From the NCBI GenBank assembly GCA_963741525.1, contig CAVUIW010000002.1, positions 77,284 to 141,283 of the forward strand: a stretch of DNA of 64,000 nt. Reading direction: 5' to 3'. How positions within the stretch are numbered: the stretch's first letter is position 1; each line of letters starts with the position of its first letter. Both the position numbers and the translations under genes were made by a program. This stretch comes from an uncultured Alphaproteobacteria bacterium (GTDB taxonomy: Bacteria > Pseudomonadota > Alphaproteobacteria > Rhizobiales > Hyphomicrobiaceae). Under the pieces are notes generated by a model. That model saw only the letters and a list, made by a program, of their open reading frames with translations. It did no database searches and was not told the origin of the DNA. Below, in pieces: positions 52,660 to 59,307 of the stretch.

Positions 52660-53220
52660 GTGGCTGGTGACGACTCAATCGTATCTGGAGCAGCCGGCCG
52701 CTATGCGACCGCCCTGTTCGATCTGGCGAAGGACGAGGGCGCGCTCGACGCCGTCGCCGCCGACCTCAATCGCTTCGACGGCATGCTCGCCGAGAGCAAG
52801 GATCTGGAGCGGCTCGTCCGCAGCCCCGTCTTCTCCGCCGACGACCAAGGGCGCGCGTTGACCTCGCTGCTCTCAAAAGCCGGCATGTCGCCGCTCGCCG
52901 TCAATTTCTTCAAGCTGCTGGCCGCCAACCGGCGGCTTTTTGTTGTCCGCGACGTCATCAAGGGCTTCCGGGCGCTGCTCGCCCGCGAGCGCGGCGAGGT
53001 TACTGCCGAGGTGACGTCCGCGCATGCGCTCTCCGATCAGCAGCTCTCCGAGCTCAAGTCCGCGCTCAAGGCCACCGCCGGCCGCGAGGTCCGCGTCGAG
53101 ACGAGTGTCGACCCGTCGATCCTCGGCGGCCTCGTCGTCAAGCTCGGCAGCCGCATGATCGATTCATCGCTCAAAACCAAGCTCAACAATCTCAAGTTCG
53201 CCATGAAAGAGGTCCGCTGA
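52660..53220 (+). CDS. atpH: F1 ATP synthase subunit delta (OSCP)
   Basis: [11 protein letters not shown]... 186 aa, with a 1-nt overlap with atpA. Confidence 0.9.
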
Positions 53221-54752
53221 TGGAAATCCGCGCCGCTGAGATCTCCTCGATCCTCAAAGAGCAGATCAAGAATTTCGGCAAGGAGGCGGAAGTCTCCGAA
53301 GTCGGCCAGGTGCTTTCAGTGGGTGACGGCATCGCCCGCGTTTACGGCCTCGACAACGTGCAGGCGGGCGAGCTCGTCGAGTTTCCGGGCGGTATCCGCG
53401 GCATGGCGCTGAACCTCGAGGTCGACAATGTCGGCTGCGTGATCTTCGGCGACGACCGCAGTATCAAGGAAGGCGACACCGTCAAGCGGACCGGCTCCAT
53501 CGTCGATACGCCGGTCGGCAAGGGCCTGCTCGGCCGCGTCGTCGACGCGCTCGGTAACCCGATCGACGGCAAGGGCCCGATCAAGTTCGACAAGCGCATG
53601 CGCGTCGACGTGAAGGCGCCGGGCATCATTCCGCGCAAGTCCGTGCACGAGCCGGTGCAGACCGGCCTCAAGGCCATCGACGCGCTGATCCCGATCGGCC
53701 GCGGCCAGCGCGAGCTGATCATCGGTGATCGCCAGACCGGCAAGACCGCCGTCGCGCTCGACACCTTCTTGAACCAGAAGCCGATCAACGCCACCGGCAC
53801 CGAAGCCGAGAAGCTCTATTGCATCTATGTCGCCGTCGGTCAGAAGCGCTCCACCGTCGCCCAGTTCGTGAAGGCGCTCGAGGAGCGCGGCGCGCTCGAG
53901 TATTCCATTGTCGTGGCGGCCACCGCCTCGGAACCGGCGCCAATGCAATTCCTCGCCCCCTTCACCGGCTGCACCATGGGCGAGTTTTTCCGCGACAACG
54001 GCATGCATGCGGTCATCGTCTATGACGATCTTTCAAAGCAAGCCGTTGCCTACCGCCAGATGTCGCTTCTGCTCCGCCGTCCGCCGGGTCGCGAAGCCTA
54101 TCCGGGCGACGTGTTCTATCTCCACTCGCGACTCCTCGAGCGCGCGGCCAAGATGAACGCCGACAACGGCTCGGGCTCGCTCACCGCGCTGCCGATCATC
54201 GAGACGCAGGCCAACGACGTGTCGGCCTACATTCCGACGAACGTCATCTCGATCACCGACGGCCAGATCTTCCTCGAGACGAACCTGTTCTATCAGGGCA
54301 TCCGCCCCGCGCTGAACGTCGGTCTGTCGGTGTCGCGCGTCGGCAGTAGCGCCCAGATCAAGGCGATGAAGCAGGTCGCCGGCAAGATCAAGGGCGAGCT
54401 GGCGCAGTATCGCGAGATGGCGGCCTTCGCCCAGTTCGGCTCCGACCTCGACGCGGCGACGCAGAGGCTGCTCGCGCGCGGCTCTCGCTTGACCGAGCTC
54501 CTGAAGCAGCCGCAGTTCTCGCCGTTGAAGGTCGAGGAGCAGGTCTGCGTGATCTTCGCTGGCACGCGCGGCTATCTCGACGGCATTCCGGTATCGGCGG
54601 TGCAGAAGTTCGAGGCGAGCCTGTTGCAGACGCTGCGCGACAAGCACAAGGGCATCCTCGACAGTATCCGCACCAGCAAGGAGCTGTCGGCGGATTCCGA
54701 GAAGCAGCTCGTTGCCGCGCTCGACGGCTTCGCCAAGAGCTTCACGGCCTGA
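53220..54752 (+). CDS. atpA: F1 ATP synthase subunit alpha
   Basis: GDRQTGKTA is the P-loop. [42 protein letters not shown] is also present. Confidence 0.97.
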
Positions 54753-54772
54753 GCCTCCAAGGATTTGCAATT

Positions 54773-55186
54773 GTGACCTCGACCCGTCCACCCGATTACG
54801 GCATGCCCATCGCTCTCGGCGATGCGCTGCGTGTTGTCGCGGCCGCGGAAGTGCAGGCACGCAAGATGGATCTTCAGGTCACGGTCGCCATCGTCGATCC
54901 GGGCGGACATCTCGTGTGTCTGCATCGTATCGACAACTGCCAGTTCGGCAGTGTCGAGGTGGCGGAGGAGAAGGCCCGCACAGCGGCGGCCTTCAGACGC
55001 CCGACGAAAGTTTTTCAGGATGCGCTCGCGCAGTCGCCGCGCGTGCTGGCGCTGCCGGGAATGCCGATCGACGGCGGTCTACCGATCATCGTCGGCGGCA
55101 AGATCGCTGGTGGTATCGGGGTTTCGGGCGCGAAGTCGGAAGAAGATGCCATCATCGCCGAGGCGGGCCTCAAGGCGCTGAGTTGA
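54773..55186 (+). CDS. GlcG/HbpS-like (DUF336) heme-binding-type protein inserted between atpA and atpG
   Basis: [20 protein letters not shown]...[13 protein letters not shown]...[20 protein letters not shown]. The start is GTG 54773 or ATG 54803. Confidence 0.7.
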
Positions 55187-55223
55187 GAAACAGGTCGAAC
55201 GCCGAGCAGTCGGGAAGAGCGGA

Positions 55224-57139: not shown

Positions 57140-57198
57140 GAATTGGCGACAATCTCATGCCCGGAACCGGGCCACGAAATGTAGATCGAGGACGTAAC

Positions 57199-58632
57199 AT
57201 GGCGGACAGACGGATCGGCAAAGTCAGACAGGTGACGGGCGCGGTGGTCGACGTGCAGTTCGAGGGAGGCCTGCCGGCGATCCTCAACGCGCTCGAGACC
57301 GATAACGGCGGCACGCGCCTGGTGCTCGAGGTGGCTCAGCATCTGGGCGAGAACACCGTGCGCACCATCGCCATGGACTCGACAGAGGGTCTCGTGCGCG
57401 GGCAGCCGGTACAAGATACGGGCAACGCCATCTCGGTGCCGGTCGGCGAGGAGACGCTCGGCCGCATCATGAACGTCATCGGCGATCCGGTCGACGAGGC
57501 GGGCCCCATCAAGACCGCCGAGCGCCGCGCCATCCATCAGCCGGCCCCCTCCTTCGTCGATCAGTCGACGGAAGCGCAGATCCTCGTCACCGGCATCAAG
57601 GTCGTCGACCTGCTCGCGCCCTACGCCAAGGGCGGCAAGATCGGCCTGTTCGGCGGCGCCGGCGTCGGCAAGACGGTGCTCATTCAAGAGCTCATCAACA
57701 ACATCGCCAAAACCCACGGCGGCTACTCGGTGTTCGCGGGCGTCGGCGAGCGCACGCGTGAAGGCAACGACCTCTATCACGAGTTCATCGAGAGCGGCGT
57801 CAACAAGGATCCGGGCAAGGGCGACACCAAGGGCTCCAAGTGCGCGCTCGTCTACGGTCAGATGAACGAACCGCCGGGCGCCCGTGCCCGCGTCGGTCTG
57901 TCGGGCCTGACGGTTGCCGAATACTTCCGCGACAAGGGCCAGGACGTGCTGTTCTTCGTCGACAACATTTTCCGCTTCACGCAGGCGGGCTCGGAAGTGT
58001 CGGCGCTTTTGGGCCGCATTCCATCGGCGGTCGGCTATCAGCCGACACTTGCAACCGACATGGGTGCTCTTCAGGAGCGCATCACCTCGACGCAGAAGGG
58101 CTCGATCACCTCGGTGCAGGCCATCTACGTGCCGGCCGACGATCTGACCGACCCGGCGCCGGCCACCTCCTTCGCCCACTTGGACGCGACGACCGTGCTG
58201 TCGCGCGGTATTGCCGAGAAGGGTATCTACCCGGCCGTCGACCCACTCGATAGCACCTCGCGCATGCTTGATCCCCGCGTCGTCGGCGAGGAGCACTATC
58301 AGACGGCGCGGCGCGTGCAGCAGATCCTGCAACGCTACAAAGCGCTCCAGGACATCATCGCCATTCTCGGCATGGACGAGCTGTCGGAAGAGGACAAGGT
58401 CGCGGTGGCGCGCGCCCGCAAGATCGAGCGTTTCCTGTCGCAGCCTTTCGACGTCGCCGCCGTGTTCACCGGTTCGCCCGGTGTCCAGGTGCCGCTCGCC
58501 GATACCATCAAGGGCTTCAAGGGGCTTTGCGACGGCGCCTACGATCACCTGCCGGAGCCGGCCTTCTACATGGTAGGCACCATCGAGCAGGCGGTCGCGA
58601 AGGCGGAGAAGCTCGCGGCGGAAGCCGCTTAA
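57199..58632 (+). CDS. atpD: F1 ATP synthase subunit beta
   Basis: [20 protein letters not shown] is the P-loop. The DELSEEDK motif is also present. Confidence 0.97.
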
Positions 58633-58654
58633 CTCAAGCGAGGCAAGTGAGCCG

Positions 58655-58915
58655 ATGGCAACCTCGAACACGGCGGGCGGAGCCAAGGGCTTCGGCTCCT
58701 GCTGCCGCGACTTGAACGAGGTGCTCGGCGCCGAGGACTTCGAGCCGCTGCTCTATGTCGGCGACGACGGCGTGCTCTACATGTCCGTCGGTGTCGTCGA
58801 CATGGAGAGCGAGGACGAAAGCGGCTTCCTCGATCATCCGATTTACCACTGCCCCTTCTGCGGCACGCGCGTGCAGACGGCGGAAGAGGTCGAAGCGAAG
58901 GCGGTTGAAGAATGA
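58655..58915 (+). CDS. Small acidic Cys-rich (CC...CPFC) protein between atpD and atpC
   Basis: 86 aa, starting 22 nt after the atpD stop. Its TGA overlaps the atpC ATG (ATGA). GC content matches the host. It ends in HCPFCGTRV, which resembles a zinc-ribbon knuckle. Confidence 0.55.
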   Translation: MATSNTAGGAKGFGSCCRDLNEVLGAEDFEPLLYVGDDGVLYMSVGVVDMESEDESGFLDHPIYHCPFCGTRVQTAEEVEAKAVEE

Positions 58916-59307
58916 CGACGTTCAAATTCGAGCTGGTTTCGCCCGAGCGGCTACTGCTGTCGGAGGATGTCGAGCAGGTCGTCGTGCCGGGCTCCGAGGG
59001 CGATTTCACGGTGCTCGCCGGTCACGCGCCAGTGCTCTCGACGCTGCGCCCCGGCGTCATGGACGTGAAGCTGCCGGGCGGCAAGGCGAAGCGCCTCTAT
59101 GTGAAGGCGGGCTTCGCCGAGGTCGATCCTTCGAGCCTGACCGTGCTCGCCCAGCAGGCGATCGATGTCGACGACATCGACGCTCAATGGCTCGCCCAGT
59201 CGATCAAGAACGCGGAAGAGGACCTGGCCGACGCCAAGACGGATGCCGCGCGGCTGAACGCGAACTCGGCGCTGTCGCATCTGCGGGCGTTGGAAGCGGC
59301 GAAGTAA
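58912..59307 (+). CDS. atpC: F1 ATP synthase subunit epsilon
   Basis: FKFELVSPERLLLSEDVEQVVVPGSEGDFTVLAGHAP. Confidence 0.93.
   Translation: MTTFKFELVSPERLLLSEDVEQVVVPGSEGDFTVLAGHAPVLSTLRPGVMDVKLPGGKAKRLYVKAGFAEVDPSSLTVLAQQAIDVDDIDAQWLAQSIKNAEEDLADAKTDAARLNANSALSHLRALEAAK

Follow-up and report, generated by a model that had tools for sequence, protein, structure and literature searches.

In the 64-kb stretch of Hyphomicrobiaceae DNA analysed here (the window), positions 52660-59307 hold an F1 ATP synthase operon in which three gene junctions are occupied: a DUF336/HbpS-like gene lies between atpA and atpG, a VapXD toxin-antitoxin module together with a palindromic element between atpG and atpD, and the gene for an 86-aa four-cysteine protein, here called cys86, between atpD and atpC. 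We consider it likely that this is an intact atpHAGDC operon whose junctions have acted as slots for small passenger genes, that these passengers were acquired at three times, and that read-through from the atp promoter is their most likely means of expression. Since relatives carry them, at three evolutionary depths, the inserts are inherited passengers and not fresh disruptions, and only a 165-nt element and a 336-nt spacer are specific to the lineage of the window. The features of the region are the following.

52660-53220, + strand: atpH, F1 delta/OSCP subunit (NF004406 equivalog, 5e-82; PF00213); its stop overlaps the atpA start
53220-54752, + strand: atpA, F1 alpha subunit (TIGR00962, 8e-251)
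54773-55186, + strand: DUF336/HbpS-like (GlcG-type) gene, passenger 1, 137 aa; 20 nt past atpA and 37 nt before atpG
55224-56114, + strand: atpG, F1 gamma subunit (NF004146, 1.7e-145)
56115-56450, + strand: spacer of 336 nt, particular to the window lineage, holding the probably spurious open reading frame (ORF) orf102
56456-56680, + strand: vapX-type antitoxin gene (DUF5397 family), 74 aa
56677-56841, no strand: double-palindrome element of 165 nt, resembling a miniature inverted-repeat transposable element (MITE) or a RIME repeat; the CTAG that it entered overlaps the stop codon of vapX
56678-56751 (74 nt) and 56767-56844 (78 nt), no strand: the hairpin units of this element, with stems of ~25 bp and folding energies (dG) of -43.5 and -45.1 kcal/mol
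56855-57139, + strand: vapD toxin gene (Cas2-like endoribonuclease family), 94 aa, with a profile match to Haemophilus influenzae VapD
57199-58632, + strand: atpD from its true start, F1 beta subunit (TIGR01039, 3e-246)
58655-58915, + strand: cys86, passenger 3, acidic 86-aa protein; begins 22 nt past atpD and shares 4 nt (ATGA) with the start of atpC
58912-59307, + strand: atpC, F1 epsilon subunit (NF001851, 1.2e-48)

As a reference set we scanned the GTDB species representatives for AtpG, which yielded 80 loci at up to 73% identity; the nearest belong to Hyphomicrobiaceae and Hyphomicrobium metagenome-assembled genomes (MAGs). Closer relatives were found via homologs of the passenger proteins, and are listed here with their nucleotide identity to the window.

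L081: GCA_046348995.1, atpA 92%
L085: JGI metagenome contig, atpA 88%
L169: ENA metagenome contig, atpA 94% and cys86 96%, the closest relative
L170: GCA_041397825.1, atpA 89%
L171: JGI metagenome contig, atpA 87%

An earlier note on this DNA had read the inserts as interruptions peculiar to this genome, and the relatives speak against that. L081 carries these three inserts in the same order, an outcome that the note itself had named as refuting its reading, cys86 is conserved throughout Hyphomicrobiaceae, the DUF336 gene is common to a genus-level clade, and vapXD occupies the atpG/atpD junction in at least 10 distinct Hyphomicrobiaceae lineages (GTDB loci, L081 and a contig from run X5 included), with VapDs that cluster together. 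That all three inserts would be recent, genome-specific horizontal acquisitions, an extension of what the note had suggested for the middle one, is in our view very improbable. Such an origin would account for the low GC content of the middle insert (56115-57198), which the earlier note had pointed out and which we confirmed (0.55-0.57 versus 0.61-0.72 in the flanks, and at third codon positions, GC3, 0.67-0.68 versus 0.84-0.89 in the atp genes), for the lack of vapXD in L169, and for a spacer and an element found in the window lineage only. Against it stand the distributions just given and the 88% nucleotide identity of vapD to its L081 counterpart, which matches the divergence of the flanking atp genes. 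Recent acquisition is contradicted for the genes by these comparisons, and would stand for the MITE and the spacer only.

The premise that atpHAGDC is a tight five-gene unit was also too strong, since it holds in about half of the nearest reference genomes. Taking as expanded, or occupied, any junction with at least 180 nt of extra DNA, we found at least one in 28 of the 60 reference loci having all four junctions visible. Expansion was counted at atpH/atpA in 1/71 loci, at atpA/atpG in 4/79, at atpG/atpD in 14/76 and at atpD/atpC in 22/68, and the occupants included Ohr/OsmC, a coiled-coil minigene, vapXD, cys86, a YHS-like protein and small membrane proteins. Three occupied junctions, as in the window, is the maximum seen, and L081 shows the same combination.

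The layout itself was described correctly in the earlier note, as atpH-atpA-DUF336/HbpS-like gene-atpG-insert-atpD-86-aa Cys ORF-atpC: the ORF map and the family scans agree on it, with every gene on the + strand. All five F1 subunit genes (delta, alpha, gamma, beta and epsilon) score above their NCBIfam equivalog cut-offs and stand in canonical order on a single strand. The end of the middle insert, put just before 57199, coincides with the atpD start that we obtained by comparison with relatives; this start (MADRRIGKV, preceded by a GAGGA ribosome-binding site), and not the longer ORF start at 57157, is conserved together with its GAGGA site in L081, L169, L170 and L085. Between atpG and atpD the order is the 336-nt spacer, vapX, the 165-nt double-palindrome repeat and vapD. 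The two small ORFs announced for this insert fared differently: orf77 is vapX, with its true start at 56456, and orf102 (56120-56428) is probably no gene. The toxin-type gene announced there is the 94-aa VapD gene.

We also considered whether the contig might be chimeric at these junctions, an assembly artefact for which we found no support and which was raised only because the window is probably metagenome-derived. Zero-mismatch short contigs from two independent metagenome runs cover 55109-55259, 56742-56996, 56972-57232 and 58546-58712, and thus span four junctions. Moreover L081, an independent MAG, is collinear with the window from 52470 to 59300 at 86-89% nucleotide identity, and L169, L170 and the X5 contig also reproduce the junctions. 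The contig is not chimeric, and the chance of an artefact is negligible.

The family-wide passenger is cys86, which lies between atpD and atpC in all of the more than 30 Hyphomicrobium/Hyphomicrobiaceae loci that carry it (16 of the 80 GTDB loci, L081-L088, L097, L169, L170 and L172-L177). These include the cultured H. zavarzinii, whose complete genome is among the six contigs L172-L177 and which reads atpA-atpG-OsmC-atpD-cys86-atpC. The protein matches no Pfam, NCBIfam or PADLOC family, and the 153 homologs returned by a word-indexed search, every one labelled 'hypothetical', include none with a Pfam domain; apart from two given only as Pseudomonadota, their taxon labels are Hyphomicrobium or Hyphomicrobiaceae. 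Positions invariant in the Hyphomicrobiaceae alignment include F13, G14, C16, C17, D60, H61, P62 and C66-P-F-C69-G70 around a GDDGVLYMSVG core, with an invariant CC...CPFCG signature formed by Cys16, 17, 66 and 69. Its GC3 of 0.84 is similar to that of the atp genes, indicating host-like codon usage, and in the clade of the window its stop and the atpC start share the ATGA overlap. We conclude that cys86 is a genuine gene under constraint and, in practice, a sixth gene of the F1 operon in Hyphomicrobiaceae.

An exhaustive profile search extended the family to 214 clusters at 50% identity (98 of them at E <=1e-10), nearly all of 60-130 aa. Its distant members, from Acidobacteriota, Myxococcota and Bacteroidota, retain FGxCC...CPFCGxxLQ and not His61, so that the four cysteines are the conserved ligand set of the family, and their CC...CxxC arrangement probably forms a zinc site. 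Both of the distant members examined (2/2) lie away from atp genes, in neighbourhoods that gave no functional clue; the atp linkage is therefore a property of the Hyphomicrobiaceae branch. An AlphaFold2 model (mean predicted confidence, pLDDT, 73) consists of a helix at each terminus and three short strands, and a fold search with it against the PDB gave no match with E < 1.

These properties bear on a different explanation, in which at least one passenger, cys86 being the foremost candidate, serves F1 as an accessory factor: cys86 would be a zinc- or redox-sensitive regulator or assembly factor that binds beta/epsilon, and the DUF336, Ohr and YHS-like proteins would couple ATP synthase expression to aldehyde, oxidative or metal stress. 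Small, lineage-specific regulators of F-type ATPases do exist, zeta in Paracoccus and AtpTheta in cyanobacteria, beside IF1, and cys86 resembles them in being small and lineage-restricted; its fixed position, its GC3, the purifying selection on it and its translational coupling to atpC would all suit such a role, as would the repeated finding of stress- or redox-type small proteins (Ohr/OsmC, DUF336, Cys-rich, YHS-like) among the occupants. Zeta and AtpTheta, however, are not known to be encoded between atpD and atpC, where cys86 lies inside the F1 operon with predicted coupling to epsilon, and cys86 is unlike any known ATPase regulator in sequence or fold, with no Pfam or NCBIfam match to zeta/DUF1476, AtpTheta or IF1 and no PDB fold match at E < 1. 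Distant members of its family sit outside atp operons among unrelated genes, and the occupants of any one junction are mutually unrelated and dispensable between close relatives, which fits neutral hitch-hiking on a strong operon. We therefore hold accessory function to be unlikely.

Somewhat more doubtful still is the proposal that cys86 is an unrecognised lineage-specific component or regulator of the F1 ATPase and, more broadly, that F1 junctions are selected slots wiring stress sensors and effectors to expression. Here cys86 may be a four-cysteine zinc- or redox-sensing mini-protein, made stoichiometrically with epsilon, that binds beta/epsilon and modulates ATP hydrolysis or assembly, and the sensors and effectors tied in Hyphomicrobiales to expression of the main energy converter of the cell may be DUF336, Ohr, VapXD and the YHS-like protein.

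The passenger at the atpA/atpG junction carries a full-length PF03928 domain (E = 1.3e-32, 113 bits versus a 25-bit cut-off, residues 15-133) as its single domain and has no signal peptide, which makes it cytoplasmic. Its best solved relatives are EfgA (6BWS, 1.3e-15), NahX (2.8e-15) and then HbpS. Because these match at similar E-values the protein can be placed at family level only, as a putative cytoplasmic small-ligand-binding or sensor-type protein that has PF03928 in common with the EfgA/HbpS/GlcG/PduO C-terminal domain/NahX family; the match to EfgA, the best solved one, is no better than that to NahX and does not establish membership of the EfgA clade. EfgA is the formaldehyde sensor of Methylorubrum (6BWS/6C0Z), and efgA has no conserved genomic context (PMC8153426). 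The atpA/atpG context of the window gene, in turn, is not reported for any characterised family member. The GlcG of a glc operon was rejected as a candidate, since the neighbours are atpA and atpG and not glcDEFGB, and NCBIfam PRK09732 scores 73 bits versus a 246-bit cut-off.

Homologs of this protein form a tight clade at 87-93% identity, with one more at 74%, beyond which identity falls to 64% or less, mostly to longer (~160-aa) proteins from other phyla. The gene stands at atpA/atpG in all three clade members examined (L169, L170 and L171), and also in L081 and in the X5 contig, which is 89% identical. It is cleanly absent from L085, which is as close to the window and has 19 nt in place of 449, and it is absent from L090, L097 and all 80 GTDB loci. 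Its GC3 is 0.74.

The middle insert holds a genuine VapXD type II toxin-antitoxin module, as judged from its two proteins and their order, and VapD would be the toxin that VapX neutralises. The VapD profile matches the H. influenzae VapD structures 6ZN8/6ZI0 at 6e-38, and an alignment spanning the whole protein gives 53% identity and keeps the catalytic residues Asp7 and Ser43; other models gave 1e-11 (PADLOC Cas2) and 34.8 bits (NCBIfam VapD, under its 100-bit cut-off). The vapX of the window aligns with the gene directly 5' of vapD in L081, L006, L012 and L026. A profile built from 29 vapD-partner proteins matches the VapX chain 6ZN8_C at 2.3e-14, and 27 of the 29 match PF17375, which identifies DUF5397 as the VapX family. 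With the H. influenzae system (6ZN8), which is described together with the related VapYD and VapWD systems (PMC11980593), the window module shares the conserved toxin, a VapX-family partner and the antitoxin-then-toxin order; unlike it, the module sits inside an F1 operon, where it has a Shine-Dalgarno site but, in a scan for the sigma-70 consensus, no promoter-like site, and its two genes are split by a 165-nt mobile palindrome.

Relatives of vapD are widespread, with at least 449 stretches in a metagenome scan, and a VapX-type partner lies directly upstream in 75 of the 76 vapD loci analysed, mostly overlapping the vapD start. Just 4 of 80 metagenome loci have vapXD inside atp operons. In a neighbour-joining tree the VapDs from atp operons fall into two groups of mutual nearest neighbours, and they diverge in step with atpG, as would fit a module captured once or twice long ago and passed on vertically since. 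The module is absent from L169 and L170, where 21-32 nt separate atpG from atpD (21 nt in L169), L085 has a 67-aa coiled-coil minigene instead, and Hyphomicrobium species have an Ohr/OsmC gene or nothing. This pattern of presence and absence implies that vapXD is dispensable at this junction.

The two genes of the module have had different recent histories. Between the window and L081, vapD is 95% identical in amino acids and has a dS (divergence at synonymous sites) of 0.58, and together with the atp genes it falls at 85-92% nucleotide identity. vapX (56456-56680, versus 5877-6104 in L081) is 73% identical in amino acids and 69% in nucleotides, with saturated synonymous sites, among flanking genes with a dS of ~0.55. 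A saturated vapX amid low-dS neighbours suggests that recombination replaced the antitoxin allele, and probably the 336-nt spacer 5' of it as well, and left the toxin in place. That spacer is replaced by 44 nt in L081, and the 63 nt upstream in the X5 contig do not match it. Searches of the rest of the window and of 1.3 Mb of sequence from related loci gave nothing similar to it, no relative has a homolog of orf102, and the spacer shows no RNA structure beyond chance (z = -1.4); orf102 is also without codon periodicity (GC1/2/3 0.50/0.53/0.59 versus an atp GC3 of 0.84-0.89). On these grounds, namely no periodicity, no similarity and no structure beyond chance, orf102 is probably spurious.

Two further origins were rejected. 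The spacer as a remnant of a coiled-coil minigene, Ohr or transmembrane-protein occupant found no blastx, tblastx or blastn similarity, and a cassette insertion duplicating the atpD translation-initiation region found a resemblance in L081 only, with a generic Shine-Dalgarno motif elsewhere.

The 165-nt insertion leaves 174 nt between vapX and vapD in the window, a gap that measures 8-9 nt in six relatives with an atp-embedded module and 27 nt in L109. The mobile element suspected here in the earlier note is borne out by a relative whose site is empty: there an 803-nt contig (runs X5/X7) joins 56676 directly to 56842, exactly 165 nt less, with CTAG at both boundaries, and L081 has 7 nt where the window has 172. 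The CTAG target includes the vapX stop codon, and its duplication restores the stop. The two palindromic units that make up the element are bounded by TAGTG...CACTA, and four units of this repeat family lie inside the window. Pieces of it occur in many unrelated X5/X7 contigs at 10-40x the local depth, one metatranscriptome contig matches it, and the unrelated soil contig L099 has the two-unit architecture at 770-934 and three units in total. The units found outside the operon are as follows.

23477-23549, no strand: unit of 73 nt (TAGTG...CACTA), 5' of an mmcB-like gene; identified by regular expression and fold, dG -38.9
24635-24707, no strand: unit in inverted orientation, 3' of the mmcB-like gene; dG -36.2
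L120 2034-2107: unit of the same family

Because of the empty site, the multiple copies and the two-unit architecture elsewhere, we regard the element as an intergenic repeat of MITE, RIME or repetitive extragenic palindrome (REP) type. The RIMEs of Sinorhizobium (Osteras et al. 1995, cited in PMC2573895) are such intergenic palindromic repeats. With RIMEs, REP elements and their mosaic forms (BIMEs) and MITEs, the window element has in common that it is short, non-coding, built of two large palindromes, multi-copy and intergenic, including within operons, and polymorphic for insertion with a short duplicated target (CTAG). It differs in giving no meaningful Rfam match (52300-59500 scanned) and in having no cognate transposase with matching ends in the 64-kb window, and its likeness to RIME1/RIME2 is one of description.

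A 1.3-kb insertion sequence had been a candidate source, on a 14-nt match between the hairpin-2 terminus and an inverted pair at 23451/24733; it was rejected, since the gene enclosed is the PF06319 MmcB-like gene, flanked by two more palindromic units, and not a RAYT or insertion-sequence transposase. That DNA-repair gene (23730-24251) is bracketed by the inverted units within 23440-24745, and a perfect 26-nt inverted repeat, GGCTTAGTGTGGCGTTCATCGCGCC, lies outside them (23440-23465 and 24719-24745), its end matching the hairpin-2 terminus in the atp operon. The region looks like a cassette bounded by repeat ends and free of a transposase. Just outside the right-hand 26-nt repeat, a 101-aa ORF (24759-25064, - strand) has a weak GIY-YIG nuclease match (E = 2e-4). 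In L099, where vapXD lies outside the atp operon, the double palindrome is ~2.4 kb upstream of it and a single inverted unit (5694-5767) ~1.9 kb downstream.

The hairpins raise the alternative that the operon is split, with a terminator or strong attenuator after vapX and with vapD-atpD-cys86-atpC read from a new internal promoter. The stems are certainly extremely stable, the 211-nt stretch 56660-56870 folding at -105 kcal/mol (z = -8.7, with 0/200 shuffles as stable), and one weak promoter-like match falls at 56876-56905, inside vapD. Yet neither stem is followed by a U-tract and no terminator was called; across 52300-59500 we found no terminator-like site and two promoter-like ones versus 1.0 expected by shuffling, the promoter scan being limited to the sigma-70-type consensus. 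Moreover relatives lacking the element have the same downstream sequence, and repeat units also occur in ordinary intergenic regions elsewhere. We judge a split operon improbable, and the element would act at most in RNA stability or processing, not as a terminator, while uncoupling vapD translation from vapX.

Read-through from the atp promoter is what the remaining signals favour. The other two inserts had been thought co-expressed with the F1 subunits, and their short spacers, the cys86/atpC ATGA overlap, the lack of terminator or promoter signal above chance and the purifying selection agree with that, so that the passengers are presumably co-transcribed with the atp genes. All three protein passengers are under purifying selection: dN/dS is 0.07-0.13 for the DUF336 gene, 0.05 for vapD and 0.03-0.24 for cys86, versus 0.05-0.20 for the atp genes. 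A Shine-Dalgarno motif precedes vapX in 7/9 atp-embedded copies versus 13/45 free-standing ones, and a -10-like box is near it in 0/9 versus 15/45, the start calls of the free-standing copies being uncertain; the sigma-70 scan likewise gave no promoter-like site upstream of the window vapX. This pattern is suggestive, being the one expected if embedded vapX copies rely on the atp transcript. As for the free-standing modules, many, among them those of L099, L116, L132, L135 and L156, have a TATAAT-like box 5-10 nt 5' of the vapX ATG, a position that suggests leaderless or very short-leader transcripts.

Several points weigh against the slot-and-passenger reading or parts of it. A promoter inside the operon, perhaps in the 336-nt spacer, is possible given a scan for sigma-70 only, and the two very stable hairpins 5' of atpD, an essential gene, might hinder transcription or translation although no U-tract follows them. 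No public run was found to contain the strain at a depth that could be used; the RNA runs share 5-7% of sampled words, and their coverage falls only on the conserved atpG and atpD cores of other taxa. Taken alone, the window vapX is a weak family match (PF17375, E = 0.17), and the metal site of cys86 is deduced from invariant cysteines only, in a model of moderate confidence (pLDDT 73). Lastly the VapD tree, being a neighbour-joining tree of 91 residues, cannot choose between one capture, two captures or repeated capture at a preferred site.

Under the slot-and-passenger reading the sequence of events was probably as follows. cys86 would have been captured between atpD and atpC in the Hyphomicrobium/Hyphomicrobiaceae ancestor and fixed since, becoming translationally coupled to atpC in the clade of the window, and the DUF336/HbpS-like gene would have entered the atpA/atpG junction in the ancestor of a genus-level clade. 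VapXD, a widespread mobile two-gene cassette, would have been captured at atpG/atpD once or twice within Hyphomicrobiaceae and then inherited mostly vertically, with repeated loss or replacement (by Ohr/OsmC, a coiled-coil minigene or nothing). Recently, and in the window lineage only, the 165-nt double palindrome would have transposed into the CTAG at the vapX stop, parting vapX from vapD, and the vapX allele and its 336-nt upstream spacer would have been exchanged. The passengers would be translated from the polycistronic atp mRNA, and the junctions would tolerate insertion because a terminator-free insert leaves downstream expression undisturbed; a strong, constitutive and essential operon would offer small genes and an addictive toxin-antitoxin module a good place to settle.

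The kinds of component found here are mostly known (a VapXD module, a DUF336 protein, a palindromic mobile repeat), and cys86 is without a described family. A literature search for toxin-antitoxin modules, extra genes or these passengers within F1 operons found no paper describing them; Tybulewicz, Falk and Walker are said to have reported, in 1984, an extra unidentified ORF in the atp operon of Rhodopseudomonas (Rhodobacter) blastica. An exact-sequence look-up of the window DUF336, cys86 and VapD proteins gave no record, in an index without the source genome. According to these results an ~80-aa CC...CPFCG family has one branch that is fixed within the F1 operon throughout a bacterial family to which the cultivable Hyphomicrobium belongs; this makes cys86 an open lead as a possible ATP-synthase-associated factor that is cheap and direct to test. 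They also present a toxin-antitoxin module kept through speciation inside an essential operon that is among the most highly expressed, apparently on the promoter of its host operon, an unusual case for the debate on whether such modules are addictive passengers or domesticated. The atpHAGDC junctions of Hyphomicrobiales emerge as recurrent landing sites for small genes, which bears on how essential operons tolerate insertion, and junction genes matter for annotation because small ORFs are often uncalled or labelled 'hypothetical'.

Some other occupants of these junctions deserve mention. The coiled-coil minigene (52-92 aa, consensus ...LEMLRRIRxSQER.ELD...RLDRxxERxxRIERRLxLxE, no significant Pfam family) recurs at atpG/atpD in several Hyphomicrobiales, and the 1.27-kb atpG/atpD insert of L054 has three of them in tandem together with a 156-aa membrane protein. 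In Mesorhizobium- and Aliihoeflea-type genomes the atpD/atpC junction holds the gene for a YHS-like protein of 64-68 aa (motif CPWSGxP...GFCNxGCRDKF; weak match to the YHS domain, E = 0.005), a second Cys-rich mini-protein at the same junction as cys86 and unrelated to it. An Ohr/OsmC-family peroxiredoxin-type gene stands at atpG/atpD in Hyphomicrobium zavarzinii and in Beijerinckiaceae, Methylobacterium and Methylocystis loci. At atpA/atpG, two vapXD-bearing Hyphomicrobiaceae MAGs have predicted small membrane proteins instead of the DUF336 gene. Their positions are as follows.

Coiled-coil minigene: L085 3389-3592; L034 6984-7229; L079 6901-7125; L030 6895-7125; L054 7386-8052
YHS-like protein: L036 8490-8696; L074 8411-8608; L077 8519-8713
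Ohr/OsmC gene: L010 6898-7302; L040 6912-7334; L041 4851-5273; L079 7142-7561; L172-L177 1988-2389
Membrane proteins at atpA/atpG: L012 5666-5920, 84 aa; L026 3616-3930, 104 aa

Finally, just 5' of atpH the window encodes a 338-aa protein (51382-52398) with a sub-threshold match to C45-family autoproteolytic acyltransferases/hydrolases, and in L169 a 338-aa gene holds the same place upstream of atpH.

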